Part shown: positions 12,500-56,653 of the stretch, piece by piece | How positions within the stretch are numbered: position 1 is the stretch's first letter | Layout: the number at the start of each line of letters is the position of its first letter | DNA from: Blastocatellales bacterium | GTDB taxonomy: Bacteria; Acidobacteriota; Blastocatellia; RBC074 | Direction: 5' to 3' | Length of the DNA stretch: 64,000 nt | Assembly (NCBI GenBank): GCA_050247435.1 | Contig: JBFWUF010000044.1 | Span: forward strand, 321 to 64,320 | Notes under the pieces: generated by a model | What the model was told of the DNA's origin: nothing | Database searches by the model: none | What the model saw: the letters and a program-made list of their open reading frames with translations, nothing else | Translations under genes and position numbers: made by a program

Positions 12500-12910
12500 T
12501 TATCGAGGTCGGGCGAGGATATTGGTGGGCAGGTAGAGCGCGGGATGATGAATGATCCGCTGGTTGGTCGAACCGCGCCATTCTCCGGCGTTCTCTGAAA
12601 GCTCTTTGACGAAGGGGCCATCAATCAGAATGTCCGAGAGTTCAAGAATCCGCCTGATTGTCCGATCATTGCGGTTTGCCAGGTCATCCAGCATATAGCC
12701 TGTGTAAAGTGTGATGTGCTGGCCGCGCTGTCTGAGTAATTGCATCAAGACCAACAACCCTTGCGGTTGCAGAAACGGCTCTCCGCCGAGGATGGTCACT
12801 CCGTCACGAGGCGCGCCTTGCGGATCGAGCAGGCGCTCGATGATTTCGCTGACTTTCATTTCGACGCCGCCGTTGATGTCGTGAGTTTCAGGAACGAAGC
12901 AAGAAGTTAT
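12500..12910 (-). pseudogene. 3' fragment of a radical-SAM NrdG/YjjW-like activase gene (C-terminal ~135 aa), displaced by the insertion to its right
   Basis: The frame is open from the stop at 12913 and reads ITSCFVPETHDINGGVEMKVSEII...ILGGEPFLQ.... This aligns with residues ~110-230 of the intact paralog at 13169..13861 and begins exactly after the expected third Cys of CxxxCxxC. Confidence 0.65.
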
Positions 12911-12920
12911 CTACAGTCTG
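12907..12920 (+). repeat. 14-bp terminal inverted repeat, left copy (TTATCTACAGTCTG)
   Basis: Exact reverse-complement match to 17150..17163. Both copies lie precisely at the break points of the split rSAM gene. Confidence 0.75.
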
Positions 12921-12979
12921 GGCGGGAATGATACGATTTGATCGATAAGTATGCTCTCTCTATTGGAGTTATTCTCCCA

Positions 12980-13050
12980 GCAGTCCATTGAGTGTTGCAA
13001 GCTTGAAGCGAGCGGAGCAAGCGTAAAGCTTGCAACACTCAATGGACTGC
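12980..13050. repeat. perfect palindrome: 25-bp arms (GCAGTCCATTGAGTGTTGCAAGCTT / AAGCTTGCAACACTCAATGGACTGC) with a 21-nt loop
   Basis: Read directly from the sequence. It lies inside the insertion, 60 bp from the left inverted repeat and downstream of the intact rSAM gene. No T-run follows, so it is not a canonical intrinsic terminator. Confidence 0.9.
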
Positions 13051-13168
13051 TCGCAGCCGCGCTGCTATGTTCACGGCGGATTTCCTCAATCCTTTCCGGG
13101 AGGCGTTGAAATCTCTGTCTACTCTTTTCGCTCAAGGCGAGGAGCAGTCTTATGGAGACGCAACATGT

Positions 13169-13861
13169 TCAGCATAGAACGATCTGACCTCTGCTGCGCG
13201 TCGCCGTGAGGTCGATCACCCGCTGGTTGCCGCTGCCAGTCCAGGCGCCAGCGCTGCCGGCCAGCGCCTCGATGTATGGGCCATCAATGAGAATGTCCAA
13301 CTCGTTGAGTGCATCGCTAATCGCAGGCTGCCGTTTGACTCGCTCTCGCAGGGCCTCGTAGGTGTATCCGCTGTAGCACAAGATGTGTGAACACCCGCGC
13401 GCACGCAGCTCACGCGCCAGCGCCAGCAATGCGTTAGGCTGTGCGAACGGCTCCCCGCCCAAAATGCTTATGCCGTCCCGATCGTAATTGGGGTCAAGCA
13501 AAGCTGCCGCTAAACAGTTCGCGGGAACCAGCACGCCGGCGCTCGAGTCGTGCAATTCAGGGACCCAGCATCCTTTGCACGCCAGGGGACACGATTGGAA
13601 CAACACGGAGCTGCGCCGTCCCGGCCCTTCCGTGAGCGAGTTATGGTAGTAGCCTGTGATGCGCACGCACTCGCTTGCCGCTCTCTCATCAGCCGTGGCG
13701 ACAGGCGGCGGCAGCACCTCGATTGGACGGGCGCAGCCGATCTCCCGCGCCGCGCCCGCAAGCTCTGTTAGATGGTTCAGCGTTTCCTCTGAAAGACGGT
13801 CGGGCCCCTCGATTAACATTGCGCCATTCAGTTCATCCACGATGATCGAAATCTCCGGCAT
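13169..13861 (-). CDS. radical-SAM organic-radical-activating enzyme family protein (NrdG/YjjW-like, COG0602), intact copy with a ~50-aa N-terminal extension
   Basis: YHNSLTEGPGRRSSVLFQSCPLACKGCW carries the CxxxCxxC motif and the GGEPF motif follows. The start overlaps the recombinase stop by 29 nt. Confidence 0.75.
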   Translation of the reverse strand: MPEISIIVDELNGAMLIEGPDRLSEETLNHLTELAGAAREIGCARPIEVLPPPVATADERAASECVRITGYYHNSLTEGPGRRSSVLFQSCPLACKGCWVPELHDSSAGVLVPANCLAAALLDPNYDRDGISILGGEPFAQPNALLALARELRARGCSHILCYSGYTYEALRERVKRQPAISDALNELDILIDGPYIEALAGSAGAWTGSGNQRVIDLTATRSRGQIVLC

Positions 13862-16093
13862 GCGATTCAGCCCCTTTCGTATTTGCGTTCGCCAATACGC
13901 CCTTTGCCGACCGCTCTTCTTCTTGTATCTGCAGTGGCGCGCCGCCGAGTGTTGTAATGCTGCGTTCGATCCCGTTGATTGCGCTGCTCATCTCGCGATC
14001 GAGTTCCTGTTTGCGAGCGCCGCCGATCATGCGGCTGCCGATCCCGCGCAGTTCAATGAGGTTTGCTCGTTGACGTTCGAGCAGCGGCAATCCCTCCTGA
14101 TCCGGGATGTAGTTTGGGCAGGAGTGACAAGCCAAACGCGTCTCACACGGGTGGTAGGCGGTTAACCCGCACCAGCCGATACCAAGATCCACAAACAGCG
14201 ATTCACGCCACTGAACCTGAGCTTCGACATGCGCTTCGGGCGAAAGCAAGACACGCACTTGCGCTGTCGCCCGATGCTCTTCATCAATGGCGGCGAAAGC
14301 GGTCTCGAACTCCTGCCGCAAGAGCGGCGGCATGACCGCCGCATAGCGCATCGTCATTCGCAGGCTTTTGTGACCAAGCATCCGGCTGATCGTCTCAATC
14401 CGCATACCACGCGCGCGCCATTGCACGGCCAGCGTGTGGCGAAACTGGTGGCTGGTGAAGGCTGATGAGGTTCCCGCGAGTGCGCAGAGTCGCTTGATAA
14501 AACAATTGAGTAGATGGGGACTAAGAGGGTGGCCCTTCCACGTGAAAAGCAAATCGCGCGTCTTATCTGTGCGCTGGTCGAGGGTCGCGGGCTGTCGTCC
14601 ACGCCTAGTCATCCACTCGTCCACTGCGGTGACTAGTTGCGGTCTGACGGGAATCATCCTGTCATTATGCAACTTGCCAATCGGAACTCGCAGCCAGTGT
14701 GTTTGCTCGCCAGTTTGTTGATCCTGTGTTGCCATCAGGCAGCCGGTATCAAGCCGACAGAGCTCGCCAGCTCGCAACCCGCACTCGAATAACACCGCGA
14801 AGATGGCGCGCAATCGCTCGAATGGCTGCGGCAGCTTGTATTCGGCGGCTAAGTCCAGTGTGAGGCGCTCAACTGTGTCGACCAGCAAGCGCCAATCAGC
14901 GTCAGGAATCGCTCGCGGCAGTTCTTCATCCAGCCGTGGCGTGTCGCCGCGCACCCATAGCTTGCGTCCAGGCCGCTCCGGATATTCCAAGGCGTCGATG
15001 TGCTCGCAAAGGACTCGCACACAGGAAAGCGCGCGCACTTGATGAGCGCGTGAAAGCGGTTCGCCAACATTGACCGTCCGGAATTCCTGCCCGACATTAG
15101 TGTAATCGCCGCATCGCATCTCCTTGACTGCGCGTTTGTATGCCTCGATGTGTGTGCGGCGTAACTCCGCGACCGACTGCAGTGAAGGGGCATACTCGCC
15201 GAGCCAGTCGCCAAAGCGCCGCAGGCTTACACGGTAACTATTGACGGTCCCCGGCGCCCGGATCGTTTTCATGTCATCGAGAAATCGCTCGAAGGTGGCC
15301 ACGATGCCAGGCGCAGTACGTCCCCACCCGAACTTGTCAGGCGGCGCGAATCCTGTCAGGCGCGGCGCCTCGCCACCAAGGTGTCCCATCGCGGCGAGCA
15401 CTTTTTGAATGCAAGTGACACTTCCGTATGCGACGCGCTTTGTGCGACGGGTGTGAGCTTGCCAGCCCTCGAGGTCGGCTTTAGTCAATTCTGCGACATC
15501 GATCTTACCGGAGAAAACGAGAACAGAGAGCAGCACGCCAACTACATGCTTGCGCAGCGAAGGCGTGTACCGATAGCCGATGCCTTCTGCCGCCTGTATG
15601 AAACGCTCGGCAATCCGGTCGGCCCGTTCTTTGCCGAGCCATCTGTCCGCCAGGTGACGATGGTAGGTCTGGTAGATCTCTTCGCTGTAAGGCAGCACGC
15701 CGAGAAAGAAGAGCGTTGAAGTTAATCGCGCCCAATTGGTGGCCAGCGCTTGCCGCCAGATTTTCGGTCGCTGCGCTTCCCGTTCCAGCAGCGCTTGCTT
15801 CCAGGCCAGCAGCTTCTCCCAGTTGAAATCCCAGTAAGTGCAGTTCAGTTCCAGCATGATCTGCGCGCATAAGTGAATAGCGTGGCTGAGATAGCATTGA
15901 TGCAGATGTGGCGGTGCGTCGCGGATGGTGAATTCATAATAGGCTCGTTTGAACTGCGCGAACAAATCTTCAAGCGCCGCCATTTCAACCTTCGAGTATC
16001 TGCTTTTGGCAAGGGCCTCACGTTCGTGGTCACGAAGCTTCAGAGGTCTTGCTATAAGGATGGCATCATTCACATTTGCCGTCTGGTTCATCA
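13833..16093 (-). CDS. large tyrosine recombinase/integrase (Tn554 TnpB-like), ~753 aa
   Basis: C-terminal catalytic region HQFRHTLAVQWRARGMRIETISRMLGHKSLRMTMRYAAV (R..H-x-x-R...Y). The start is placed at MMNQTANV (AAGGAG RBS), 28 nt inside the upstream gene's end. The long N-terminal region is unassigned. Confidence 0.8.
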
Positions 16094-17124
16094 TTTCTCC
16101 TTTTGGTTGCGCCGGTCGAGCTGACTCGCTCGGTTTTGCACGCCGCCATAGCCTGAAGATATTCGCGCTGTAAGCGCCCGTCACGTATCTCGTTGTAGAT
16201 GAGCGTCGTTTCAATACGACGGTGACCGAGCTGACGTTGTAGAGCGTCAAGAGGCATGCCGGCTTCTGCCAGATTGGTGGCGCACGTGTGACGAAAGGCA
16301 TGGGCGTGAACACGCGGCGTGCCGGCTTTCTGGCGCGCCTGTTCGCAGACATAAACCCACCCGCGGTAGCTGAACGGTTGCCCGAAGTTGCGCCTCCCCA
16401 GACAGACGAAGACGTAGTCGTGATCAAGTCGTTGCGGGCGTTCCAGCCGGATGTAATTGCCGAGCGCATTCAACGCGTCTTCACTGAGCGGCACGATCCG
16501 GGAATTATGGCTCTTCGTCGAGCGAACGGTGACGCGGTGTCCCGCCCAGTGGATGTCGCCGAGTCTTAAATCGAGAGCTTCGCTGATGCGTACGGCCCCA
16601 TCCTTCAACAGAAAGACAATGGCGCGGTCGCGATGGCTGGACGCGGTGAGTTGAGCAATGAAACGATCAACTTCGTCAGCGGTGAGTGTCTCCGGGTGCA
16701 GGCGGTCATAGTGAAGGAGCGCAGGTTGTCCGGTAATGACGCCAGCAGCGGCGCGCAAACTGGCGCCGCCCGGCACAGGATTGCGATGAACGCCGGTCAG
16801 TTCCGGTTCAAGAGAGAGGAAGTTGTACCACTGCCTAATCGCGGCTAACCGCCGGACGATTGTGCGAGCGCTCACTGTTGCGTCCTCGTGAATAACCCGC
16901 TCACGTTCAGAGCGGATGAAGGCAATGATATGACTCGAACGGGCGGCCAACGGGTCGAGGCCGGATTTGTTGCAGAAGCTCAACCACCGCTTGAGGTCGT
17001 GGCGGTAAGCGCGGACGGTATTCTCCGGACGGACAATGGCAAGATCGGCAATGAATCGTTCGATCCAGCCTGCGGCGTTGCCTGGTTGTATGGGAGCGCT
17101 TGGTTCGTTTTGTCGTTCTGTCAT
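16066..17124 (-). CDS. tyrosine recombinase, XerC/XerD-like (Tn554 TnpA-like), 352 aa
   Basis: N-terminal SAM-like core-binding domain (TVRAYRHDLKRWLSF) and catalytic HAFRHTCATNLAEAGMPLDALQRQLGHRRIETTLIYNEI. Confidence 0.85.
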   Translation of the reverse strand: MTERQNEPSAPIQPGNAAGWIERFIADLAIVRPENTVRAYRHDLKRWLSFCNKSGLDPLAARSSHIIAFIRSERERVIHEDATVSARTIVRRLAAIRQWYNFLSLEPELTGVHRNPVPGGASLRAAAGVITGQPALLHYDRLHPETLTADEVDRFIAQLTASSHRDRAIVFLLKDGAVRISEALDLRLGDIHWAGHRVTVRSTKSHNSRIVPLSEDALNALGNYIRLERPQRLDHDYVFVCLGRRNFGQPFSYRGWVYVCEQARQKAGTPRVHAHAFRHTCATNLAEAGMPLDALQRQLGHRRIETTLIYNEIRDGRLQREYLQAMAACKTERVSSTGATKRRNDEPDGKCE

Positions 17125-17134
17125 GGGCGCTATC

Positions 17135-17452
17135 TTAAGTCGCCCACCTCAGACTGTAGATAAAGTTCGGACATCGAGTCAAACATCCGGAGGTTTGCAG
17201 TACGCTGCGCCTGCCTGGTCCTTCGACCACTGAGTTGTGGTAGATGCGGAAGACGCGTAGAGATGGCCCGCCGTTTAAAGTTGCCGAATTGCGTAGAGGC
17301 ACAATATTGATCGGTCGTGCGCAGTTAACAGATTTGCCCGACGGTAAAATGTCCTCGGCTAGTTCTTTCAGCTCTGATTGCCGTAGCCCCTCAACTGTCA
17401 TTTCGCCGCTGAGAACGTCAATAATCCACGTCGTCTCTCTCATCGGCCTCAC
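17135..17452 (-). pseudogene. 5' fragment of a radical-SAM NrdG/YjjW-like gene (N-terminal 105 aa, truncated within the CxxxCxxC motif)
   Basis: ...RIYHNSVVEGPGRRSVLQTSGCLTRCPNFIYSLRWAT* is homologous to the N-terminus of the intact paralog, including the 50-aa extension. It reads through the right inverted repeat and stops 11 bp before the recombinase start. Confidence 0.65.
17150..17163 (-). repeat. 14-bp terminal inverted repeat, right copy (CAGACTGTAGATAA on the plus strand)
   Basis: Reverse complement of 12907..12920. Confidence 0.75.
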
Positions 17453-17646
17453 ACTTTCTTGTTCTGGATCTGCGGCCTGACATTTGGGCGGGCGTAGAAC
17501 TCCTTGGTGTTCTCTTCGTGTTCCGGCGCGCCAGTCAGCTCAGTGACGATCTTGGCGACGTCCGCGCACTGCGGCCCCTGAACGCCTTCCACCTTCATCT
17601 CCATCTCGCCGGTCTGCTGGTCAATCGTGAAATTGATTTCGGGCAT
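17449..17646 (-). CDS. DUF2997-family small protein (65 aa)
   Basis: MPEINFTIDQQTGEMEMKVEGVQGPQCADVAKIVTELTG fits the short DUF2997 pattern (small beta protein with a conserved Cys), as recalled from memory. It overlaps the next gene by 4 nt. Confidence 0.55.
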   Translation of the reverse strand: MPEINFTIDQQTGEMEMKVEGVQGPQCADVAKIVTELTGAPEHEENTKEFYARPNVRPQIQNKKV

Positions 17647-17661
17647 TGTTTCACTCCTTCT

Positions 17662-18061
17662 TCAGTAACGGACCTTGATCTTTACGACGCCGCCCTCGAC
17701 CGTGCGATGCGCTGTTCCGCGCAATCGAGCCGCCACTTTGCTGACGACGCGCTCGTTGTATGCGGCGCGAAGACGTGGGAGGAACTGGCCGTCCAGCGCG
17801 CGGCGGCGGTCGAGTTCGTCCATCACCGGCCTGTAGGCGCCGTTTTCAGTTCGCTCGAAGCCGATGTCGCCGTAATTGTTCCCAATGGAGCTGCGTGGAA
17901 CGATGACGTCCGCCCTTTGCAAGAGCTGTTCGGAGTAGTAGCGCCCCATCTCCAAACTTTCGCCTTGTTTGATCCATTTGCAACCGACGTCTTCAAGAGC
18001 GGCGACGAGCAGATCGCGGTCTTTGAAGACGACTTCGGTGAAGGTCATGTACTTGCTCATT
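17662..18061 (-). CDS. DUF1257-family protein (133 aa)
   Basis: MSKYMTFTEVVFKDRDLLVAALEDVGCKW... resembles the DUF1257 N-terminus (MSHF..IKT.FKD...L..AL.DLGC). The start is placed at MSKY with a GGAGGAAG RBS. The longer track ORF is an upstream extension. Confidence 0.55.
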
Positions 18062-18094
18062 GCTGCTTCCTCCTCTCGATAAATAATGGTTGAT

Positions 18095-19705
18095 TCACAT
18101 CTCCAATGCTCGCGGGCTGCGCATCCGCTCGTTGATCGGCGTGACGCTTGCGCCGCCAGCGCTGATTGCCATGTGATCCTTCGCCCAGTTGCGCAGTGAC
18201 TCGACCTGCTCGCGCTTGATGACGCTCGTGGGTTGAATCTGCCTGGCGCGTTCAGCAATGTCCGCTGTTGTCACTTCACGCTCGCCGTCCATAAACGCGC
18301 GCAGCAGGCCCGCTTTGACCGTCGCCTCGATCTCCGCGCCGGAGAAGCCCTCGGTGGTCTCGGCCAACTCGTCCAGGTCGAAGCTGCCGGAATCGCGCTC
18401 TCGCTTGCGCAGATGCACTGCAAAGATTTCGCGCCGATCTTCAATCGTGGGCAGATCAACGAAGACAATGTGTGAAAAGCGTCCTTGCCGCGTCTGCTCC
18501 GCCGCCAGACCGCGAACGTCGTTGGCCGTGCCGATCACAAACACGTCCGATTGCTCCTGCATCCAGTTGAGCAGGTAGGCGATGGTGCGCGCCGTCTCTC
18601 CACCATCGGTTTTGGCCGATGATTCAAGCCCGCCAACGGCCTTCTCGAACTCGCTGATGCCGAGGATGCCTTTGAGCGTCGTAGCGATGGAAAGAGCGCG
18701 TTTGATCGTCATCGCCGATGATCCGATTACGCCGCCGCCTTCGCCCATCACGCTGCCGAAATCGAGATCGAGAAGCGATTTGCCCAGTACCGACGAAGCG
18801 ATCTTCTTGGTCAGGTCTTTGCCGCAACCGGGCAGGCCGACCATCAGCAACCCCTTCATCGGCTCGACTCCGTAAGCGCGCGCAGCGGGAGTGAATGTCG
18901 CCGCAGCTTCGGTCAGAATCTGTCGTAGGTTGTGATAGCCGCCGAGATGATCCGCAGGCTCGGCGTGCGTGTAAGTGAGCGCGCCTGTCCCCTTAATGAC
19001 CGACTTCTTCTCGTCGAGGATTACGGGCAGGGCCTCAGCAGTGAGACCATTGCCGCTGATGATGGCTTTCGCCAGCACGTTCTCGATGTCCGATTCGGTC
19101 AGTCCGAGCAGAGCCTGGACGAGCTGTTCCCGGAGCCGCTCGTCAACCTCGACACGAACCTCGCCGGCTTTGAGGTTTTGCATCTGCGCATCGAGCATCG
19201 CAGTCACTTCGCGTTCATCTGGCAGCGGAAGCTCTATGACCTTGATCTCCTTTTCCAAAGCTGAGACGTCGGGCAAGTTTCGCTCGACAAACAACACGTT
19301 GATGTGTCGCCCTTTGATCTCCCACGCGAGTTCGCGCAGCCGGCGGACCAGTTGCGGGTCTTCCTGGCCATACGGCGCGAAATAGGGACTGTAATCGCAG
19401 AGCACGAACAGTCCTTTCTTCTGCTGAGCGATGTACTCAAGCGCGCTCATTGCGTCCTGCGTGTCAGGGATCAGAATCTCTTTCTGACCCTTCAGTTCGG
19501 CGCCGAGAACCTGCCGCAGGCCGGTCGTGCGACTCCAGATAAACAAGCCTTTCTCTTTCTCGCGATGACACTTCAACCGTGCGACCGCGCTCATGATGCG
19601 GTGAAAGCGTCCTTCCTCCGGCGTGTTGACCGCGATCAGCGGGTAGCGGGCGCGGATCAACACGTCGAGTTCAGTAACGATCTTTTCCAGATTTTCCTGT
19701 GACAT
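18095..19705 (-). CDS. AAA+ ATPase (CDC48/FtsH-like AAA module in the C-terminal half), 536 aa
   Basis: GLLMVGLPGCGKD (Walker A, with the unusual GKD), sensor-1 region VFVIGTAND, Arg-finger-like RQGRFSHIVFVDLP. GAGGAG RBS. Confidence 0.75.
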   Translation of the reverse strand: MSQENLEKIVTELDVLIRARYPLIAVNTPEEGRFHRIMSAVARLKCHREKEKGLFIWSRTTGLRQVLGAELKGQKEILIPDTQDAMSALEYIAQQKKGLFVLCDYSPYFAPYGQEDPQLVRRLRELAWEIKGRHINVLFVERNLPDVSALEKEIKVIELPLPDEREVTAMLDAQMQNLKAGEVRVEVDERLREQLVQALLGLTESDIENVLAKAIISGNGLTAEALPVILDEKKSVIKGTGALTYTHAEPADHLGGYHNLRQILTEAAATFTPAARAYGVEPMKGLLMVGLPGCGKDLTKKIASSVLGKSLLDLDFGSVMGEGGGVIGSSAMTIKRALSIATTLKGILGISEFEKAVGGLESSAKTDGGETARTIAYLLNWMQEQSDVFVIGTANDVRGLAAEQTRQGRFSHIVFVDLPTIEDRREIFAVHLRKRERDSGSFDLDELAETTEGFSGAEIEATVKAGLLRAFMDGEREVTTADIAERARQIQPTSVIKREQVESLRNWAKDHMAISAGGASVTPINERMRSPRALEM

Positions 19706-19729
19706 TGGCTCCTCATGGATTAATGATGG

Positions 19730-21034
19730 TTACAGTTCCAGCGCAGCCAGACGGTTCGGTTGACCAATCGCGTGCGCGTCGCGATAGCAGAGCTGGACGA
19801 TGTCGTCCAAAACCGCCTTGACCGATGCGTTGCTTGTTCGCCGCTTGTTCTTTCCGGTCGGTTTGGCCGCGAGCCTTTCGAGATTATTGAGGAGCTGATC
19901 CAATTCCGAATCGGACTGAAAGTTCATCAGCCGGAACCAACGGGTCAGGTTCCGCGCCTTCTTCGCCGTCGCGCCGGGAAGGAAATCGTGTTTCTCAAGC
20001 GCCTCCTGCATCGCCACAGCCGATTCGTAAATCTGCGCGCGCAATTGGGCCGCGCCTTCCTGTAATGGGCTAAGCGTCTCCTGGAGCTTTTCACGCGCGG
20101 CGTCGAGCTTCATCTGACGAATGCGCTCTTTCACTTCAGCTTCGCGCTTCCGTTCGTCCTCTTCAGCAGTCAGTTTGAGACGAAGGCTTTCCTGTTCGCT
20201 CCACATCTGCTGCTGAATTGTTCTCTCGGCTGCGTTCACGCGCAGTCGTTCGACCCGGCGTTCATCTTCAATCTGCTCGACGCGGCGACGCTCTTCAGCG
20301 GCCAGACGCTGCTCGCGGAGCATTTCGCTGCCCAGCAAAATCACTCCCACCTGAAAACGCAGAGCCAGCTTTTGACGAAGTTCGTCTTCAGTCGGAAATG
20401 CGCTGAGCACGCTGCTGATTACGCGCCCCTCGAAGTCTTCTGGCACGATGGCGCCGGTAGCTTCGAGCCGTTGCGCGGAATCGGCGGCCACCTGCCTGAG
20501 CGTGACAATCACTTCCCGCCGAATGTCATCGTACTGATCAAGGACCTTCCGCCTGGCTTCGTTCAGGTTGTCGCAGGCTTTGTTGAATGCCGATTCGAAC
20601 TCGGTGAAGGCGCGCCACGGAACCCAGCGATACGCCGGAGTCTCAAAAAGAGTTTCGGTCAAGCGGAAGTGATAACTGTATTTATGCAGCGCCGTATGCG
20701 CCTGCGAGACGGGCGTGAGCAGCGGCCGCCGGAAACGATTGGGCAACAGGCCGCAGCGCGGCGGGGTAAAAGCAACATCGGTGTTTTCAGGCAATTGGAC
20801 TCCCAGCGCCTGCCAGTCCAGTCTGCGGTCAAGAATTCCGAAGCCGGTCGCATCCACATTAATGAAGACGCCTTCTTCTTCCAGGGCGGAAAGATCGAAC
20901 GGCAGGCGTTCAATCTCTTCAGTGCTGCGATCCGTCCGCGCGGCGGCGACGGCGGCGCGATGATTGCCGTTAGAAACGATGGCAGCTTCCTGCTGAAATT
21001 GCGCCGGAGTGAATGGAAATACATTGGTACTCAT
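19730..21034 (-). CDS. hypothetical protein with a long coiled-coil, E/R-rich central region (434 aa)
   Basis: AAGGAGAG RBS. Its stop lies 25 bp upstream of the AAA+ start, so it is probably in the same operon. Confidence 0.5.
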   Translation of the reverse strand: MSTNVFPFTPAQFQQEAAIVSNGNHRAAVAAARTDRSTEEIERLPFDLSALEEEGVFINVDATGFGILDRRLDWQALGVQLPENTDVAFTPPRCGLLPNRFRRPLLTPVSQAHTALHKYSYHFRLTETLFETPAYRWVPWRAFTEFESAFNKACDNLNEARRKVLDQYDDIRREVIVTLRQVAADSAQRLEATGAIVPEDFEGRVISSVLSAFPTEDELRQKLALRFQVGVILLGSEMLREQRLAAEERRRVEQIEDERRVERLRVNAAERTIQQQMWSEQESLRLKLTAEEDERKREAEVKERIRQMKLDAAREKLQETLSPLQEGAAQLRAQIYESAVAMQEALEKHDFLPGATAKKARNLTRWFRLMNFQSDSELDQLLNNLERLAAKPTGKNKRRTSNASVKAVLDDIVQLCYRDAHAIGQPNRLAALEL

Positions 21035-21108
21035 TTTGACTCTCCTTGTCAGTGAATGATGAGAGCAAAGCTCTGTTCAGAGATTGCAGACAGCTTCTTT
21101 TTCGGTGT

Positions 21109-21170
21109 GTCATTGCCACAGGCTCAATTGAGAAGGCTGACCTGTGGGATGAGCGGTGGAAGGTTTGCGC
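21109..21170. repeat. 62-bp direct repeat, copy A (degenerate copy of the 3' end of the helicase-C gene)
   Basis: About 80% identical to 21775..21836 with the same internal spacing. Conserved blocks are GTCAYTGCCACAGGCTCAAYTGAG and GATGAGCGGYGGAAGGTTTGCGC. On the minus strand it encodes a pseudo C-terminal tail ...KPSTAHPTGQPSQLSLWQ*. Confidence 0.8.
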
Positions 21171-21231
21171 ATGTTCTTTGCTTGGCTCGCAATTTTGAAA
21201 CGCGTCCTCATCGGCGACATCCGTGAACAAT

Positions 21232-21492
21232 TCACAGTCCCGAATCAGCGTCCGAAATCTCGTAATCGCCATCAACGATGCGCTCGTACTCTTCGCGGTG
21301 CCGGCGGGCTTCGTAGTGGCGCTCAAGCAGGCAGTCCGGGCAGACGCCGTCTTCAAGCTCGCTTACCGGCCAGGTGTGGCCGCACTCCCCGCATTGCGCA
21401 AGTTCCTCTTCAGCGTATTCGGCCAACGAGTCAGCGTCTTCGGCGCCGTGGCCGTAGATGTCATCGAGTGAATTGGGTTCCGGATATGCCAC
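21232..21492 (-). CDS. small zinc-ribbon protein (86 aa)
   Basis: CGECGH...CPDC pair of CxxC motifs in an acidic protein. Confidence 0.45.
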   Translation of the reverse strand: MAYPEPNSLDDIYGHGAEDADSLAEYAEEELAQCGECGHTWPVSELEDGVCPDCLLERHYEARRHREEYERIVDGDYEISDADSGL

Positions 21493-21774
21493 AGGTTTGT
21501 CTCCTTTCGCTGGTCAGTCCATATCGTCGAGGGCAGCCAGCGCCGCGTCGAGATGAACGCGGAATGAATTGGTTTCATCGTCATCCATCACCGCGCGCGC
21601 CAACCGGTCGGCGCCATTGAGCAGTTACTCGATCAGGCAAAGCGCCGTCACCCTGTCGTCGTCAAAGGAAAGCGCGTGACCCACTAATCGGGCTATCGTC
21701 ACGTCGGGCGTTTCATCCCGCTTGTTCATCGGTTCATCTCCTTTCGTCGGTTCGTGGTTTTCGGAAATCGGAGT

Positions 21775-21836
21775 GTCACTGCCACAGGCTCAACTGAGCG
21801 GGTTGATTCGTGCGATGAGCGGCGGAAGGTTTGCGC
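21775..21836. repeat. 62-bp direct repeat, copy B (authentic 3' end of the helicase-C gene: ...AAHRTNQPAQLSLWQ*)
   Basis: See copy A. Confidence 0.8.
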
Positions 21837-23335
21837 CCGCTCTTTTGTGGCGCCTGATCCCGTAAATCGTCGAGCGTGATTTGACGGCGAGATAGCTCCC
21901 CGTCGCCAGCGGCGACCGCTTTGAGTGAAGATTCTTTCTCTTCCGAGTGAGATGGCGCCGTCTGATCGTCCACTGGTTGGGCTGATGTGACTGAAACAGG
22001 AGTAATCTCGAGTTGGGCGGAGACCGCCTCGGATGGCTGAACGGATTCCTCAACGCCTGGCGCGCAATTTCGGAGCGCGTCTTCCTCGAGGGCTATGAAT
22101 TCCTGTCTGTCATCAATCTGCGAACCGTCTTCTTTGAGCGATTGATTGACGCGTCGAAACTGCGCCTGAAGCTCCTCGTACTTCCGCGCGTAGTCCCATC
22201 CTCTGGCCAACTCCTGCTCAATCGTCCGCTGTTTATGTTTGAGGTCCGCCTGATTTTTCAAGGCGCGTTGAAGGTGGGCGTCAATCGCGTTGAGCTGCGC
22301 GTCAATGGATTGGATTGTTCCCTGCGCCGATTCGCCGAAGTTGAATGTGTAAAGCAGCTTGCTGTCCGGCGCGCACAGGGATCCTTCGACTGACGTGAGA
22401 AATGTTTCGCCAAACTCCCGCTGACGTTTCGCCAGGATTTGGAAGCCGCGATAGGCGCCGATCAGGCAATATTCAAAATCGAGCCTCATCCCAATCTCAC
22501 GGCGGAGCTTGTCGAGATGCTCTCCGGCTTGCGGGCGCTGATCAAATTTGAGCCATTCATCGCGACCGATAGATCGCTTGAGTTTGATCGCGAACGCGCC
22601 ATCGGGGAATGAGTTTCGATCACGGATGGCGAGAGCCTGCTCATGACCGGCGACGCGCTGGTCAGCTTCGCGAATCCTGTCCGGCAACGATTCAAGCTCC
22701 CATTTCAGATTGCGGCGGCCGTTGCGCCAGACAATGTAAAGACGTGACAAGCGCGCGAGTTCGACCTCAATGGAGACTCTTTCGAGGATACGCGGATTGC
22801 CGCTGGCGATGGCTTTGACCTGCGCTGCCGTCATCACCATATCGTCCACATCTTCGGATGACCGAGCCGTCACTTCGCCAGCCATTATCTGGCTGATGAA
22901 CCGGGCTTTGTTCTCCAGCGTCTGCCACATGAAGCCGTCGAAGGAGCCTTCCGTGACGTAATTGAAAATTCTGACCTCAGGATAGCGGTTGCCTTGACGC
23001 AAGATGCGGCCTTCGCGCTGCTCTACATCAGCCGGACGCCATGGGGCATCGAGGTGGTGGAGCGCATACAACCGCTCCTGCATGTTGACGCCCGTCCCTG
23101 CCTTTTCCGTGCTGGCGATCATCACGCGAATCTTTCCGGCGATCGCTTCCGCGAAAGCTCTGGCCTTTTTCGCCGGGGTGTCGAAGTCGTGAATGAAGGC
23201 GATCTCGCCAGCGGGGATGCCGCGCCTGATCAACTCGCGCTTGATCTCACCGTAAATGCCCAGCCGGTCAAGACGCTCACTTTGCGTTTCGATGACACGA
23301 CCGTCCTCTTCAACGATGATTTCTTCGTTTGTCAT
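21776..23335 (-). CDS. SNF2-type helicase C-terminal domain protein, the C-terminal part of a DarB-like methyltransferase-helicase
   Basis: Helicase motifs V/VI: GTGVNMQ ... LHHLDAPWRPADVEQREGRILRQGN. Confidence 0.75.
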   Translation of the reverse strand: MTNEEIIVEEDGRVIETQSERLDRLGIYGEIKRELIRRGIPAGEIAFIHDFDTPAKKARAFAEAIAGKIRVMIASTEKAGTGVNMQERLYALHHLDAPWRPADVEQREGRILRQGNRYPEVRIFNYVTEGSFDGFMWQTLENKARFISQIMAGEVTARSSEDVDDMVMTAAQVKAIASGNPRILERVSIEVELARLSRLYIVWRNGRRNLKWELESLPDRIREADQRVAGHEQALAIRDRNSFPDGAFAIKLKRSIGRDEWLKFDQRPQAGEHLDKLRREIGMRLDFEYCLIGAYRGFQILAKRQREFGETFLTSVEGSLCAPDSKLLYTFNFGESAQGTIQSIDAQLNAIDAHLQRALKNQADLKHKQRTIEQELARGWDYARKYEELQAQFRRVNQSLKEDGSQIDDRQEFIALEEDALRNCAPGVEESVQPSEAVSAQLEITPVSVTSAQPVDDQTAPSHSEEKESSLKAVAAGDGELSRRQITLDDLRDQAPQKSGRKPSAAHRTNQPAQLSLWQ

Positions 23336-23336
23336 T

Positions 23337-23362
23337 ATTGTGATTGGCGATTGTGATTGGCG
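23337..23362. repeat. 13-bp tandem direct repeat x2 (ATTGTGATTGGCG ATTGTGATTGGCG)
   Basis: Lies immediately 5' of the start codon of the helicase-C ORF in the 38-bp gap after the 136-aa ORF. No Shine-Dalgarno there. Confidence 0.85.
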
Positions 23363-23373
23363 GCAGGAAGGTT

Positions 23374-23784
23374 TTAGTAAGAGCAGTCGGTGCAGACACT
23401 GCCCAGCTCGGCTGTGCGATTGTAGATTTCCCCAAGCGTGAGAGTCACGCTCTGTCCTTCGGAGTTGATCGCATAGGCTTCACCGATAAGATAGCGCATC
23501 TTTTCAGAGCCGATCTCCATCACTACCGCGACGTAATCAGGCGCCAAATGTTCGGCTAGCAAGCTGAGGAAATCCACGCCATCCCACTCACCCGATTCGT
23601 CGTTGTGACGGGTAAGCGGAATGCCCGCCTCATTCCCGCTATTGAGAAATCCATAAAGAACCACATCGCCTTCGGACTTGGTAATCATTTCGAGACTGAA
23701 CTCTTCGCAAAATTTCTTGAACAATTCCACGTCTTTGACCGCAAAGTAGTTTGATCTGAAAGTCGCAGTGTAATTAGCCATCAC
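23374..23784 (-). CDS. hypothetical protein (136 aa) encoded between the two halves of the split methyltransferase-helicase
   Basis: GTG start overlapping the upstream stop (GTGATGGCTAA). No recognisable motif. Confidence 0.4.
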   Translation of the reverse strand: MMANYTATFRSNYFAVKDVELFKKFCEEFSLEMITKSEGDVVLYGFLNSGNEAGIPLTRHNDESGEWDGVDFLSLLAEHLAPDYVAVVMEIGSEKMRYLIGEAYAINSEGQSVTLTLGEIYNRTAELGSVCTDCSY

Positions 23785-26700
23785 CGTTGCTCCTTTCTGT
23801 CAGCCTGTCGCTTCGACCCTTCGGAGTCGAAACGTCCAAAAACACAAGCTGCACGCCGCGAGTATTTTGGGATTCGCGATAGAGCCGTTCGATGTTGTCA
23901 ACGAGCGCCATCACCTTCGACCGCGCAGGGCGAGGTGAATCCGGTTTGACGAGCCGGATGTCGAGAGCGGCCTTCCGTCCATCGCTCGTCACCTTCAACA
24001 TATTGTCAGCGTGCGGTGAGACTCGGCGGCCCTTGATGGCTTCCACCCGGCGGGCAAGTTCGTGGACGTACTTCTTTAATTCATCGCTGGCCGGAACGCT
24101 GACGATCTCAGGTCTGCCGCCTTTGAGCTTTGGTCGAGGCAGATTCAATTCGGCGGCGGATTTAACATCCAGCGCCTGCTGCCAGAGCTTGGAAAGTTCG
24201 GGAATGTTGGTGAATTTGTTGAAACGCGTGTTCATTCGGAACCCTGACCCGTCCGGCGTCATCTCCAGCGACTGTGTGGTTTCGGCGAACTGCTGAACCC
24301 AGGCGTCGAAGTGGTCGAGGCCAAGCTCCTGCAAGGTTTCAAGCTGAAGATACTTCTGGCAAACGTAGACTTCGGCGAGGGTGTTACTCACCGGCGTGGC
24401 GGTGGCGCAAATTACGCGCCCGCCGTTTTCCAAAACTGAGCGCACTTTGATAAAGCAGTCAAACGCGCGCTGTGAATCGGTATTGGGTAGCCCAGCGACG
24501 CGGCTCATCTTTGTCGGGCAATAGAGATTCTTGTAGTAGTGGAATTCGTCAATGAAGAGCGTATCAATGCCCAACTCTTCCCAGGTGATCGTGTCGCTGG
24601 CGATGCGTTTGATTTGTTGATTGGCGCTGTCGAGTCTCGCCTTGAGCTTTTTGATCGCGCGCTGAATCTCCTTGACGCTGCGTTTGTTGTTGCCACTGGC
24701 CGACTCGAAATCTTCAAGATACTCGGTGAGCGTATCAATCTCCTGCTGAATGTAGCCCCTGGCAGTATCGGGATTGAGCGGCAGCATCTTGAAGGCAGTC
24801 TGGGGGATGATAATGGCGTCGTAATCCGAGGTGGCGATTCGGCTGAGCAGTTCGCCGCGTTGGGACGCGGTCAGATGCTCCTTGCCGGGAGCGAGTAGTC
24901 GAATGTTCGGATATAAACGAATCGCTTCGGCGGCCCATTGCGCGGGCAGATGATTCGGAACCACGATCAGCGATTTGTGACAGAGGCCGAGACGTTTGAG
25001 TTCCATCGCCGCAGCGATCATCGTGAATGTCTTGCCCGCGCCGACACAATGTGCGAGCAGTGTGGCCTTTGATTGGAGGATTCGCCAGATGGAATTATTC
25101 TGGTGAGAGTAGAGCGTGATGTCGGCGGACATCCCGGGCAGCGCGAGATGGCCGCCATCGTATTCGCGCTTGCGATAAGCGTTGAACCTATCGTTATAGA
25201 TTCTGACGAGAGTCGCCGCCCGTTCGTCATCTTGCCAAACCCATTTGGCGAACCGCTGCTTGATCTCAAGCTGTTTGGCTTGCGCGGCGATGGTCTCATT
25301 ATCGTTGACGACGCGGCGCACGCCGCCGTCGGCGTCTCTGACTTCGTCGGTGATCGTTGTTGTCCTCAAGTTGAGTATGTCTTCGATCAGCTCAAAGGCG
25401 TTCGCCCGCGAAGTTCCCCAGGACTGCGTCGCCTCTACGGAAGAGCGGGACCAGGCGCTGTTGTTCTCGATCTTCCAGATGGCGAGCGCCGGGATGAATG
25501 TAACCTTGCCGTTGAATGATGGGACGAGCGATGAAACGAAGTCGCTGACGACCTTTTCGGGAACCCACGCCGATCCGAGTCTGACGATGATCTCGTCGCG
25601 TCCGAGATCGGCGGGTTGAACGGCTTTCAGCGCCTCGACGTTCTTCTGAAACCTCGGATTGAATTGGGCGGCCCGCTCAGCCTCGCGCAGCTTCTGTCTG
25701 ACCTCGCCGGACAGGTAGTCATCGGCCGTAGTGAACTCGCCGCTCGGCGTTTCATAAATCAGCCCATCGAGCGCGGCGAGAACCTCCGGCTCCGGCTGTT
25801 GGCACAATCTGACGATGTAATCGAGGTCAACCCGGCCTTTGTCATTCAGCGAAACAAGCAAGGCCTCCTTCGGCGCGCATCTGGTCGGTTGTTGGCGCGC
25901 CGGACGAATCGTCCGTTCGGAAAAGAGAGGCGCCTTGTTGTAGCGGTTCTTCCCGACGGGAATTTCCAAAGCTTTGAGAAAAGGAACGACAGGGCTGTGC
26001 GGACTGAGCTTTTTGACGTTCCCATTGATCGGACCGAAGCGCATCTTGAATTGGGAGTAGGCATCGGAGAGTTCCTGTTGTTTCTCCTTCAACTCGTCAT
26101 CCGAGGCGTCGCGGAGTTGCAGCCTGATGACCTCTTTGGCCGCGACGTAAATCCTGAGCAGTTCGTTGACGCAGGTTCGGTCACGTTCCGAAAGCTCACT
26201 TTGATCCGTTGCCGCCAGGAAATCCTCCCGGTCGGAAAGCGGGCTGCCTGTTTCAAGCTCAGCCTGTACGGCGAAAGCGCAATAGCCGTTGGCGGGAAGC
26301 TGCGCGATCAGTGTCTGCGCCAGACTCGCTGCGAGATCACGGCCATCATCCTTGAGCAAAAACTCCTCGCGCTCATACATCCCGCGCCCAAAGCAAGGCT
26401 GGCCGAGCATCCATTCGGGATGAGCGATGAAGAGTTTGTTGACGCATATTTCACGCTCGTCTTCCTCATTGTCGCTAAGCGTGATCTCGCCGACATCAAT
26501 CCAATCATCTTGCGACGCCCGCAACGATTGAATGCGTTTGCGGAGGATCAACACGTCCGTAACGACTTCAGTTCCTGCATTGGCCCGGAAAGCGCTGCGT
26601 GGCAGACGCGCCGCGGCGAGAAGCTCGGCGTGAGTCGCCAGATATTGCCGAACCTTCGGCGATTTCTTGTCGAGCGTGTACCTGGACGTGATGAAGGCGA

Positions 26701-27502
26701 TGATGCCGCCAGGTTTGACGAGTCGCAGCGATCTAACAAAGAAGTAATCGTGAATCGAGGCTTTGAGAAAGCTTTCCCTGACACCCACATCCGCAATGGC
26801 GTAATTGCCAAACGGGACATTCGAGATGACCAGATCGAAGTAGTTCTCAGGCAGCGGCGTCTCTTCAAACGGCTGAATGAAGACGCGAGTTTGTGGGTAG
26901 AGGCGTTGCAGGATGCGGCCTGTAAGCGAGTCAATCTCAATAGCCACTCGTTCGGAATTCGCCTTGAGGTTTTGTGGCAGCGCGCCGAGAAAATGGCCAA
27001 CGCCAGCGGCAGGTTCAAGAATTCGAAGCTTTGTTCTCCCTGATGAGCCGAGCGCGACCGATTGACCGGAATCCAGTTCAAGAATTCTGCCCCCGCTGCG
27101 CATAGCGATGCCGAAATGATCGAGCGCCTCGTAGATCGCGCGAATGATCGGCAGACTTGTGAAATGAGCGTTGAGTGAGCTGGCGAGCAGGCCTTTGATC
27201 TCATCCGGCGTGAGCAACTCTGCCAGTTCAGCGCACGGACGCGACCACGAATAGGTCCCGCTGGGGAAGGCGCGACTGAGGGCATCGGAGTCGCCCCAGC
27301 CAGTGTACCGGGCAAGAGTTCGTTGCTCTTCAGGCGTCAACTCGCCAGGCGGATGCGATTCGGCTTCGAGTCGCTTGAGCAGCGTGATTGCGGCGACATT
27401 GAATTTAAGGCGCGAAGCCGCGCCACTCAAATCCGACAGATCATCGTCATGATCGAAGCGGAAGTCTGCCGTGTTGACATCGGTGACCAAAGCAGCCTGC
27501 AT
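23774..27502 (-). CDS. N6-adenine DNA methyltransferase fused to an SNF2-type helicase N-lobe (phage P1 DarB-like antirestriction-type protein), 1242 aa
   Basis: MTase motif IV NVPFG with an upstream Rossmann motif (LEPAAGVGHF). Helicase motif I CVGAGKTFT, motif II LFIDEFHYYKN, motif III CATATPVSN. GGGAGA RBS. Confidence 0.8.
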   Translation of the reverse strand: MQAALVTDVNTADFRFDHDDDLSDLSGAASRLKFNVAAITLLKRLEAESHPPGELTPEEQRTLARYTGWGDSDALSRAFPSGTYSWSRPCAELAELLTPDEIKGLLASSLNAHFTSLPIIRAIYEALDHFGIAMRSGGRILELDSGQSVALGSSGRTKLRILEPAAGVGHFLGALPQNLKANSERVAIEIDSLTGRILQRLYPQTRVFIQPFEETPLPENYFDLVISNVPFGNYAIADVGVRESFLKASIHDYFFVRSLRLVKPGGIIAFITSRYTLDKKSPKVRQYLATHAELLAAARLPRSAFRANAGTEVVTDVLILRKRIQSLRASQDDWIDVGEITLSDNEEDEREICVNKLFIAHPEWMLGQPCFGRGMYEREEFLLKDDGRDLAASLAQTLIAQLPANGYCAFAVQAELETGSPLSDREDFLAATDQSELSERDRTCVNELLRIYVAAKEVIRLQLRDASDDELKEKQQELSDAYSQFKMRFGPINGNVKKLSPHSPVVPFLKALEIPVGKNRYNKAPLFSERTIRPARQQPTRCAPKEALLVSLNDKGRVDLDYIVRLCQQPEPEVLAALDGLIYETPSGEFTTADDYLSGEVRQKLREAERAAQFNPRFQKNVEALKAVQPADLGRDEIIVRLGSAWVPEKVVSDFVSSLVPSFNGKVTFIPALAIWKIENNSAWSRSSVEATQSWGTSRANAFELIEDILNLRTTTITDEVRDADGGVRRVVNDNETIAAQAKQLEIKQRFAKWVWQDDERAATLVRIYNDRFNAYRKREYDGGHLALPGMSADITLYSHQNNSIWRILQSKATLLAHCVGAGKTFTMIAAAMELKRLGLCHKSLIVVPNHLPAQWAAEAIRLYPNIRLLAPGKEHLTASQRGELLSRIATSDYDAIIIPQTAFKMLPLNPDTARGYIQQEIDTLTEYLEDFESASGNNKRSVKEIQRAIKKLKARLDSANQQIKRIASDTITWEELGIDTLFIDEFHYYKNLYCPTKMSRVAGLPNTDSQRAFDCFIKVRSVLENGGRVICATATPVSNTLAEVYVCQKYLQLETLQELGLDHFDAWVQQFAETTQSLEMTPDGSGFRMNTRFNKFTNIPELSKLWQQALDVKSAAELNLPRPKLKGGRPEIVSVPASDELKKYVHELARRVEAIKGRRVSPHADNMLKVTSDGRKAALDIRLVKPDSPRPARSKVMALVDNIERLYRESQNTRGVQLVFLDVSTPKGRSDRLTERSNGDG

Positions 27503-50134: not shown

Positions 50135-51430
50135 TCAAATTATCTCCTGTTTGTTGGGTGATTCGATCCAGGCTGTGACGCCACTGCATTCTGAGATCTT
50201 TTCGGTGAGGATTCCCAGTTCACGCTGTAACCTGCGATAAAAAACCCAGACATTGTGCAGGCCGCGTCGCCGATTGCGCTCAGCGCCTCGGAACAAGATG
50301 ACGTGATAGCCGATGCGCTGGCAAACATCACAGGGGCAGTGCAACCAGGGGCGATTCGTCAATACTTCCCTGTAAGTTTCCTGCATATCACGCCCCGGTT
50401 CGCAAAAATGATCGTAAGCAATAATTGCCTCAAGCGTTTGGTCAAGAGTGTATTCACCTATATCAAACTTTTTCAGTGCAGTTAGACAAGCCTTTTCAAG
50501 CTTACGAGCGTGATCTTGCGAAACCTGCCCCGATTTGATCCGCTTTTGTAATTGCGGATTACCTTCCACTTGTGGAACCCTAATGGCACTGTAAGTTCGA
50601 TCCATCGTATAAAAATTATCTTTCTCATCCTTAAATGCCTGTCGCAATGGTGAGGTGCTGTCGAAACTCGAGACGCCATAACCTATGAACGTTGGCAAAT
50701 GATCCGTGCGCGTTACACCGAGTAAATGCAGTTTTGTTTTTGGCTCTCTCACGTCAGCAATGGCAGCTAAGCAAGAAACGATCTCTTTCGTTTTCAGCGG
50801 TACCATGCCGCCGAGGGCAATGTATGTATAACCAATTCGCTGAAGCGATTGGACTGCACGTGCATAAGATAAAGGGCTCCATCCTTGGGCAACGCCAACT
50901 GGCTCAAAATCGAGTCTTAATGCGCGATGCCTAGCCAAAAACTCTGAAGCCAGTTGCAACGTGATTTCCTGGCGGCGAACAAATTCTGCCGGGACGGCAT
51001 CAGTTGCATTATCAAGATTCGCTTGATACGCAAGAATCACATGATCAACGGAGATTCCGTAATTGAACTCGCATTCGACATAAAACCGTATCACCTCATC
51101 AACTGTATAAGGAGGAACCTCCTCGCGCACGTAGGTGAAAGCTCCGCAGTCTCCCATAATCGGAAGATTGCGGGAACCTGTTCTGAAGAACTCAGGCGCG
51201 CCGACTCTCAGAAGTCTGTGCCGCTGGGCCATTGTGTAACGGCTGCCGTTGTTGCCGTAACCATCAACAATCCCTTTGGAAACGAGTAGTCCATCATAAG
51301 CCGCAGACGAAAACACTTCGTGAGCGTACATATCATCCCGATGACGCACGCGATCAGGAGAGCGATTCTCCTTCTCGAAGTCGAAACTAGGATCAACAAA
51401 GTCTTGACTATCCGGGAAAAAGAACTTCAT
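50135..51430 (-). CDS. dpdA: tRNA-guanine-transglycosylase-family DNA-guanine transglycosylase DpdA
   Basis: TGT hallmarks: LHLLGVTRTDHLP, FDSTSP, the zinc site CPCDVC...H, and YIALGGMVP. Encoded beside preQ0 synthesis genes and DGQHR proteins. Confidence 0.75.
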   Translation of the reverse strand: MKFFFPDSQDFVDPSFDFEKENRSPDRVRHRDDMYAHEVFSSAAYDGLLVSKGIVDGYGNNGSRYTMAQRHRLLRVGAPEFFRTGSRNLPIMGDCGAFTYVREEVPPYTVDEVIRFYVECEFNYGISVDHVILAYQANLDNATDAVPAEFVRRQEITLQLASEFLARHRALRLDFEPVGVAQGWSPLSYARAVQSLQRIGYTYIALGGMVPLKTKEIVSCLAAIADVREPKTKLHLLGVTRTDHLPTFIGYGVSSFDSTSPLRQAFKDEKDNFYTMDRTYSAIRVPQVEGNPQLQKRIKSGQVSQDHARKLEKACLTALKKFDIGEYTLDQTLEAIIAYDHFCEPGRDMQETYREVLTNRPWLHCPCDVCQRIGYHVILFRGAERNRRRGLHNVWVFYRRLQRELGILTEKISECSGVTAWIESPNKQEII

Positions 51431-56563: not shown

Positions 56564-56653
56564 TCCACCTCCAATCGAGATGCAAAGAAGTTCACGGGGG
56601 TCGGGGCACAGAGCTTAAAGAGTCTTTGTCGAGAGTTTGACGATAACGCCCAA

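Follow-up and report, generated by a model that had tools for sequence, protein, structure and literature searches.

Cyanobacteria, red-lineage plastids and hundreds of clinically important IncC resistance plasmids share conserved proteins of three kinds, DUF1257 (Ycf35), DUF2997 and AAA+ proteins of the Ycf46 type, and our literature search found no paper that assigns them a mechanism. In cyanobacteria, the genes for DUF2997, Ycf35 (DUF1257) and Fed7 form a cluster (PMC4284462) and the ycf46 operon is induced by severe oxidative stress (bioRxiv 10.1101/2025.07.21.665879). Here, we analysed a stretch of 64,000 nucleotides from a Blastocatellales bacterium of the Acidobacteriota (positions 321 to 64,320 of contig JBFWUF010000044.1, assembly GCA_050247435.1; hereafter the window), in which genes for an AAA+ ATPase, a DUF1257 protein and a DUF2997 protein lie next to each other. 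An initial annotation, made from the sequence alone, took them for a three-gene module within an accessory island, with a possible role in defence or regulation. We find instead that they are the middle of a conserved block of five genes, which begins with the gene of a 434-aa protein, ends with that of a NrdG-like radical S-adenosylmethionine (rSAM) enzyme and forms part of the backbone of an integrative mobile element. The families themselves were already catalogued, and public annotation shows the AAA-DUF1257-DUF2997 neighbourhood; new are the five-gene definition, the DUF2997-rSAM fusion, the swap of Walker motifs as a character of the clade, the backbone rather than defence-island context, the link to the IncC backbone and a transposon that replaces the gene it targets.

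Comparison with related systems

The block has the Pfam families DUF1257 and DUF2997 in common with the cyanobacterial and plastid Ycf46-Ycf35-DUF2997 proteins, and both here and in the fed7 cluster the small proteins adjoin a [4Fe-4S] protein. On cyanobacterial plasmids, DUF1257 and DUF2997 occur together with a full-length AAA homologue 36% identical to that of the window; a relation to Ycf46 itself is suggested only by these plasmid homologues and by name, as some close AAA homologues carry the JGI designation “SpoVK/Ycf46/Vps4 family”. The Pseudanabaena plasmid has the order GrpE, Hsp70, DUF1257, ATPase, x, DUF2997, AAA (x, another gene), and its AAA protein differs from the window ATPase in the canonical GK[ST] and DE motifs. 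The cyanobacterial version lacks the rSAM and the 434-aa protein, and the literature places Ycf46, Ycf35 and the fed7 cluster on chromosomes or in plastids, whereas the block in the window lies in a mobile element.

The same gene order, AAA, a protein of about 130 aa with a DUF1257-like N-terminus and DUF2997, is found in the conserved backbone of IncC (IncA/C2) plasmids near ParB, a DNA methylase and ParA. The IncC AAA protein is a full-length homologue of the window ATPase, 27% identical across 92% of the query, but has canonical Walker motifs, the 130-aa protein falls short of Pfam DUF1257, and the trio is accompanied neither by an rSAM nor by a homologue of the 434-aa protein. One such trio lies on the E. 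coli IncC plasmid pM214_AC2 (L095, record 19350-21510). The IncC trio would make the whole family accessible to experiment in a tractable setting.

Full-length homologues of the ATPase are encoded on 686 plasmids, 586 of them conjugative. The canonical-motif plasmid relatives are accompanied by DUF2997 and, in one case, by an annotated DUF1257. A plasmid of B. cereus has the order rSAM, x, HhH, AAA, DUF2997, and on a Treponema plasmid rSAM is followed by AAA within a contractile-injection-system locus that has neither DUF1257 nor DUF2997; these two plasmids are independent instances of AAA-rSAM adjacency. Phages also hold homologues, with phrog_8638 matched over the full length at 5.7e-88 and some encoded by mycobacteriophages. 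The co-occurrence of an AAA gene with DUF1257 and DUF2997 in cyanobacteria and other phyla, which the initial annotation had stated with moderate confidence, is borne out by the Pseudanabaena, IncC and B. cereus plasmids and by the fed7 cluster. The 377-aa and 310-aa IncC proteins, the 734-aa Pseudanabaena protein and the HhH protein of B. cereus were considered as homologues of the 434-aa or DUF2997 proteins and rejected by hhalign.

Conservation and layout of the five-gene block

A genome scan with the ATPase alignment yielded 80 loci in Acidobacteriota, Chloroflexota, one Proteobacteria metagenome-assembled genome (MAG) and one Ignavibacteriaceae MAG. Almost everywhere the flanking sequence suffices, the genes of the 434-aa protein, AAA+ ATPase, DUF1257, DUF2997 and rSAM follow each other in one order and orientation, and the block is still intact in relatives whose ATPase is only 43-45% identical. 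When open reading frames (ORFs) were clustered across the approximately 80 loci, the AAA+ protein was recovered in 74 loci, the 434-aa protein in 64 loci and the rSAM in 57; in 64 loci the 434-aa gene immediately precedes that of the AAA protein. Two or three copies are present in each of at least nine MAGs, and three homologues of the 434-aa protein bear the same locus-tag prefix as the MAG of the window. The conserved unit is therefore one of five genes across these loci and not the three-gene module first described, although the neighbours reported for it, a coiled-coil gene before and an interrupted rSAM gene after, are both present.

In the window (Table 1), the spacers between the successive genes from the 434-aa protein to DUF2997 are 24, 34 and 15 nt long, and that between DUF2997 and rSAM measures 5 nt, or becomes an overlap if the GTG start of rSAM is used. 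Each of these spacers holds its own GGAG-type ribosome-binding site and no terminator-like sites were seen between the genes of the block. These five closely spaced genes form an operon without strict stop-start coupling; the claim that all are translationally coupled does not agree with this layout.

Around the block, related loci encode a UvrD-type helicase, a DnaG-type primase, a Rad52-type annealing protein, SSB, RadC and a DnaN paralogue, together with a ParB-like protein, a PAPS-reductase-like protein, ThiF-E1, Prok-E2_D, Prok-JAB, Prok_Ub, DUF2958 and a sigma-54 activator. With replication and recombination genes as its neighbours, the block is part of the conserved backbone of an integrative mobile element and not variable cargo. 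The proposed connection with mobile DNA holds, and the block did not prove to be a core-genome operon unrelated to it.

Table 1. Positions of the block genes, the inserted element and other features. Coordinates refer to the window unless another locus is named.
Feature	Coordinates	Strand	Remarks
434-aa helical/coiled-coil protein	19730..21034	-	leads the conserved block; no Pfam family
AAA+ ATPase, classical clade, 536 aa	18095..19705	-	family-specific N-domain (~1-250) and single AAA module
DUF1257 (Ycf35-family) protein, 132 aa	17662..18060	-	PF06868 match
DUF2997 protein, 65 aa	17449..17646	-	PF11211 match; one invariant Cys
Resident NrdG-like rSAM gene, 5' part (residues 1-94)	17168..17443	-	includes DUF2997-like N-domain
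Resident rSAM gene, 3' part (residues 96-222)	12500..12901	-	identity to L001, L005, L010
Inserted Tn554-like element, 4.26 kb	12907..17164	-	terminal inverted repeats TTTATCTACAGTCTG and CAGACTGTAGATAA
Element tyrosine recombinase, 352 aa	16066..17124	-	Phage_integrase 4.3e-36
Second, large element tyrosine recombinase, ORF of 878 aa	13833..16469	-	Phage_integrase 2.9e-25; true start probably later
Element-borne complete NrdG-like rSAM, 230 aa	13169..13861	-	own DUF2997-like N-domain; Fer4_12 5e-28
Tn554-like element in L025	12480-17910		
Tn554-like element in L061	12523-16676		
Tn554-like element in L075	12521-17731		
Tn554-like element in L080	from 12526		
Rad52-like ORF as listed, 304 aa	11667-12581		overlaps resident rSAM 3' remnant
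DNA methylase / SNF2 helicase	21776-27502		three consecutive ORFs
Dpd-type 7-deazaguanine DNA-modification cluster	28282-53537		complete
TGT-like DpdA	50135-51430		within the Dpd cluster
Family-B DNA polymerase (774 aa) and small RecA/Rad51-like ATPase	53995-57259		right end of the island

Walker motifs of the AAA+ ATPase

The 536-aa protein, described as CDC48/FtsH-type from the outset, matches Pfam AAA (PF00004, 3e-13) and AAA_lid_3 (4.8e-10), and among solved structures it is closest to the D2 and D1 modules of p97/Cdc48. These two domains, a sensor-1 Asn (TAND) and Arg fingers in the second region of homology place it in the classical clade of AAA+ proteins. Over about 260 residues, the AAA module and lid align with the Cdc48/p97, PAN and FtsH unfoldases (E 7e-36), and the Walker A Lys, the Walker B Glu, TAND and the Arg fingers (RQGRF or RIGRF), which are invariant in the family, are in place as in these enzymes. 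The window ATPase differs from the unfoldases in its single AAA module, an unrelated N-domain, the GKD sequence of Walker A, the lost Walker B Asp and a 3-residue insertion at pore loop 1 (MGEGGGVIG).

The unusual motifs had been pointed out by the initial annotation and proved to be characteristic of the whole group. In the window, Walker A reads GLPGCGKD and the Walker B region GILGISEFEK. Instead of the canonical GxxxxGK[ST], 77 of the 78 locus-encoded proteins have GLPG[CT]GKD, and the canonical hhhhDE of Walker B is replaced by ILG[ILMV]SE, in which the Asp is substituted and the catalytic Glu kept (LG-x-SE[FY]EK in 77/78). An exhaustive search with the ATPase yielded 2378 cluster representatives at E <=1e-30, and covariation of the two motifs was read among the best 150. 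There, S, G, T or A takes the place of the Walker B Asp in every one of the 18 evaluable GKD proteins, 117 GK[ST] relatives keep the Asp (DE), and no protein has Asp at both Walker positions. Probably, the GKD group is one clade and the change hence a single inherited event rather than many; within the group, the Walker B Asp never returns and the position drifts among small residues. The simplest reading of this covariation is that the Mg2+-binding carboxylate would have moved from Walker B (Asp to Ser, Gly, Thr or Ala) to Walker A (Thr or Ser to Asp), in a site that is rebuilt but probably still active. Torsins, with GKN in Walker A, provide a precedent for a functional non-canonical Walker A among AAA+ proteins.

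The full-length plasmid and phage homologues carry ordinary GK[ST] and DE motifs and lack the 3-residue insertion near pore loop 1. Five canonical-motif homologues (P0391, P0393, P0397, P0497 and P0504) are 750-1130 aa long and have apparent intein-like insertions exactly at the Walker B strand (…APC|V.GDT…).

DUF2997 and the radical-SAM enzyme

The 65-aa protein was correctly assigned at first: it matches the full PF11211 (DUF2997) model (positions 1-47) with 32.1 bits and E 1.1e-7, above the gathering threshold of 24.1, as well as phrog_23133, and its Cys (G..G..C) is invariant across the 61 sequences compared (100%). In the rSAM proteins, about 60 residues precede the NrdG-like core. Alignment of DUF2997 with this N-domain by hhalign gave a probability of 96.4% (E 1.2e-9, 38 columns), vs 5.8% with reversed columns, at most 2.1% in 20 column shuffles and 0.4% against DUF1257. 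On the strength of these profile comparisons, the rSAM N-domain is judged to be homologous to DUF2997. The presence of one family both as a free protein and as a fusion to rSAM is classical evidence that both bind a common partner, for which DUF1257, invariantly adjacent, or the N-domain of the AAA+ ATPase would be the obvious candidates. The linker that follows the DUF2997-like domain of rSAM holds a second Cys (C-A-R-P), 100% conserved in the alignments and seen in the element-borne copy; the two invariant Cys residues, in DUF2997 and in the linker, suggest a shared metal or disulphide site.

The rSAM core is closest to NrdG (TIGR02491, 93.6 bits, 1.1e-26), followed by other activases of glycyl-radical enzymes, and it also matches phrog_626, annotated as “anaerobic ribonucleotide reductase small subunit”; a sequence search of the PDB gave no match. 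It resembles the NrdG and PflA activases in core size, in its best hidden Markov model matches and in two motifs, GGEP and CxxxCxxC (the latter being SCPLACKGC in the element-borne protein and GC(x)3C(x)2C in intact orthologues). In contrast to these enzymes, it scores below every curated cut-off (126.1 for TIGR02491), carries the extra N-terminal DUF2997-like domain and has no neighbouring glycyl-radical enzyme. We also considered rSAM as a QueE paralogue serving the Dpd cluster of the window, which was rejected because the Dpd cluster has its own QueE, because rSAM matches NrdG/PflA models rather than QueE and because the block occurs without Dpd in other loci.

DUF1257 and 434-aa proteins

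For the third component of the supposed module, the assignment to DUF1257 stood and the length did not, as the protein has 132 and not 133 aa. It matches PF06868 with 28.6 bits (E 1.7e-6; gathering threshold 22.2), as do 18 of the 21 members of its family, and an identical protein bears the DUF1257 name at NCBI. The Pfam scan of the translation of 17662-18063, which has one extra N-terminal residue, gave no DUF1257 match, which is unexplained; the exact ORF scores and the version longer by one residue does not, so borderline matches hinge on the filters of HMMER. The AlphaFold2 (AF2) model of the protein has a pLDDT (predicted local distance difference test) of 87. A role of DUF1257 as glycyl-radical carrier is judged unlikely, as its invariant D-I-G-F would lie in a well-ordered strand/loop of this model.

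The 434-aa protein gave no matches in Pfam, PHROGs, NCBIfam or PADLOC, and a likeness to DUF3150, which we had presumed, could not be confirmed. Its AF2 model contains a long helix (216-349) and leaves the strongly conserved N-terminal segment 44-70 unfolded; the most conserved part of the protein, LPFDLS..LE.EG.F.N.D..GFG.L.R.L.W, lies exactly where no fold is predicted.

A Tn554-like element with its own copy of the interrupted gene

The transposon Tn554 encodes a pair of adjacent tyrosine recombinases, of which one has about 350 aa and the other is much larger, and inserts strictly site- and orientation-specifically into one conserved gene. The element that splits the resident rSAM gene of the window shares the two-recombinase architecture and the site-specific insertion, and by this architecture it may be likened to the Tn554 family; TnpC was not identified in it. 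Unlike Tn554, it has terminal inverted repeats of 13-14 bp, targets the CxxxCxxC codons of rSAM and carries a full-length spare rSAM copy.

The insertion interrupts the resident gene ahead of the codon for the third Cys of CxxxCxxC. The intact orthologues in L001, L005 and L010 share 68-77% identity with its 5' part and 69-74% with its 3' part, which matches Fer4_12 at 1.5e-21 (model positions 22-137). The element-borne rSAM belongs to another subtype: it is 62-64% identical to its counterparts in L025, L061 and L075 and has about 40% identity with resident-type copies. The element is present in five loci (the window, L025, L061, L075 and L080), at one shared codon and in one orientation, and wherever its right end could be located, it is directly followed by what is left of the resident rSAM gene on the 3' side. 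Because the disrupting element always supplies a full-length replacement with a DUF2997-like domain, the rSAM function appears to be under selection and its loss costly; a transposon that bears a spare copy of the gene it destroys is rare. The Rad52-like ORF, as listed, overlaps the 3' remnant, and its true start probably lies downstream, its orthologues being 241-244 aa long.

Proposed function and alternative explanations

We infer a physical complex for protein remodelling, in which the AAA+ protein, with one module of the classical clade and a large family-specific N-domain, would be the ATP-driven motor and DUF1257 and DUF2997 its small partner or adaptor subunits. The rSAM would dock onto this complex through its own DUF2997-like domain and perform hydrogen abstraction of the glycyl-radical-activase type on a protein substrate. 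The best candidate for this client would be the 434-aa protein, through its conserved unfolded N-terminal segment with the invariant GF motif, while a host protein is an equally possible substrate. The mobile element would probably use the module in replication or in its establishment in the host. We have high confidence that these five genes act jointly, with the AAA+ protein as their hub. An AAA+-centred remodelling complex with a DUF2997-docked radical-SAM activase, serving the mobile element, is our best overall explanation and is put forward tentatively, with somewhat less than even confidence; the specific chemistry proposed is doubtful. A still bolder version is improbable: an undescribed mobile-element machine in which the DUF2997 fold and DUF1257 physically link a Cdc48-like AAA+ protein with relocated carboxylate to a radical-SAM activase of glycyl-radical type, and which installs or uses a protein radical on the 434-aa or a host client. 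If an AAA+ motor and a radical enzyme do cooperate, this would be a new coupling of ATP-driven protein remodelling to radical chemistry, and a first functional handle on Ycf46, Ycf35 and DUF2997 of cyanobacteria and plastids and on the uncharacterised IncC trio. Two clues can be tested: the “Rosetta-stone” fusion of DUF2997 and rSAM, and the coupled swap of Walker A and B, a natural experiment in the active-site architecture of P-loop proteins.

Several observations weigh against the remodelling complex with a docked activase. The IncC and cyanobacterial trios occur without rSAM, and the Treponema version without DUF1257 and DUF2997; this variation implies that the partners of the AAA+ hub are exchangeable, and rSAM could be its client instead of a co-enzyme. 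The GKD motif combined with Ser-Glu could instead form an ATP-binding but hydrolysis-poor switch. Neither NrdD nor another glycyl-radical enzyme nor an obvious substrate is encoded in the window or the annotated related loci. Furthermore, the fold search with the DUF1257 model returned no informative structural neighbour, the AF2 model of the 434-aa protein is of low confidence and too poor for such a search, and our literature search gave no functional study of DUF1257 or DUF2997 and no paper linking these families functionally.

The main rival, unlikely in our estimate, is that AAA+, DUF1257 and DUF2997 maintain an oxygen-labile [4Fe-4S] protein, keeping the rSAM activase functional or repairing and reloading its cluster. 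The rSAM would then be the true effector and at the same time the client, recognised by its DUF2997-like handle, and the corresponding client in cyanobacteria would be the ferredoxin Fed7. The fed7 cluster, the oxidative-stress induction of the ycf46 operon, the DUF2997-like domain on rSAM, the invariant Cys residues in DUF2997 and in the rSAM linker and the Hsp70 and GrpE genes that adjoin the trio on the Pseudanabaena plasmid are all in keeping with such maintenance, but the IncC trio has no annotated Fe-S protein beside it and no Fe-S assembly genes are found nearby. Less likely still is a function in establishment or anti-defence, by which the module would remodel or radical-modify a host protein, e.g. 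a restriction or immunity factor, soon after entry of the element. SSB, RadC, the ParB-like protein, the DNA methylase-helicase and the annealing proteins are neighbours typical of plasmid establishment regions, most plasmids with a full-length AAA homologue are conjugative and phages hold homologues too; no known anti-defence family was matched, however, and multi-copy chromosomal residence suits any backbone function equally well.

The defence role considered at first, in which AAA+ would sense infection and rSAM or the small proteins would act as effectors, seems a shade more improbable again. The window does hold the Dpd cluster and methylase/helicase genes, toxin-antitoxin-like cassettes are inserted near the block in some loci, and the AAA module resembles IetA of the IetAS/SgiAT systems (AAA+ ATPase with S8 protease), whose models it matches at 2.5e-20. 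However, the score for NCBIfam IteA is 53.5 vs a cut-off of 510, no S8 protease partner was found, which leaves the ATPase outside these systems, and none of the PADLOC or NCBIfam defence models was matched at threshold: the scans gave generic AAA similarity alone, no matches in PADLOC for the 434-aa, DUF1257 and DUF2997 proteins and only pVip at E 0.004 for rSAM. We therefore regard a defence system as unsupported. The neighbours of the block are moreover fixed and of replication/recombination type, the Dpd cluster is missing from other loci, the trio is part of the IncC backbone and not of a variable hotspot, and no nuclease, protease, TIR or similar effector is present. Very unlikely, finally, is a supply of nucleotides, in which the NrdG-like enzyme would activate a host class III ribonucleotide reductase to provide deoxynucleoside triphosphates for replication of the element. 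NrdG is the best family match, phrog_626 bears the name of such a reductase subunit and replication genes surround the block; yet the NrdG score stays below its cut-off, NrdD was found neither in the window nor in the annotated related loci, and this explanation leaves no role for the DUF2997-like domain or the tight linkage to AAA+.

Other genes of the window

Next to the block, the DNA methylase / SNF2 helicase is encoded by three consecutive ORFs (1242, 136 and 519 aa); this arrangement is kept in L001, L009 and L011 (1242, 135 and 519 aa) and is therefore not due to a sequencing frameshift. The Dpd cluster that follows begins with QueC, QueE, QueD and FolE2, continues with large SNF2/DEAD helicase and ATPase genes (DpdE-K-like) and further contains two DndB-like genes, the TGT-like DpdA and a DUF6884-like gene; between about 49 and 53.5 kb its G+C content is 0.49-0.50 vs approximately 0.57. 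As the Dpd cluster was not found beside the block in other related loci, we regard Dpd as cargo and the block as backbone. At the right end of the island, the family-B DNA polymerase and the RecA-like gene lie beside housekeeping genes, which begin near 57.6 kb, and suggest a self-replicating integrative element. The window contains no tRNA gene, and none of the ORFs scanned at the ends of the island encodes an integrase. A prophage origin was rejected, as IMG/VR viral contigs contain no relative of the GKD clade and phages hold distant canonical-motif homologues only.

In 26-29 loci from two phyla, the ubiquitin-like set (ThiF-E1, Prok-E2_D, Prok-JAB and Prok_Ub) together with DUF2958 and the sigma-54 activator is located near the block; the set was seen up- or downstream of it in L046-L083 and L089-L091. 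A functional link between ubiquitin-like tagging and a Cdc48-like AAA+ protein is conceivable.

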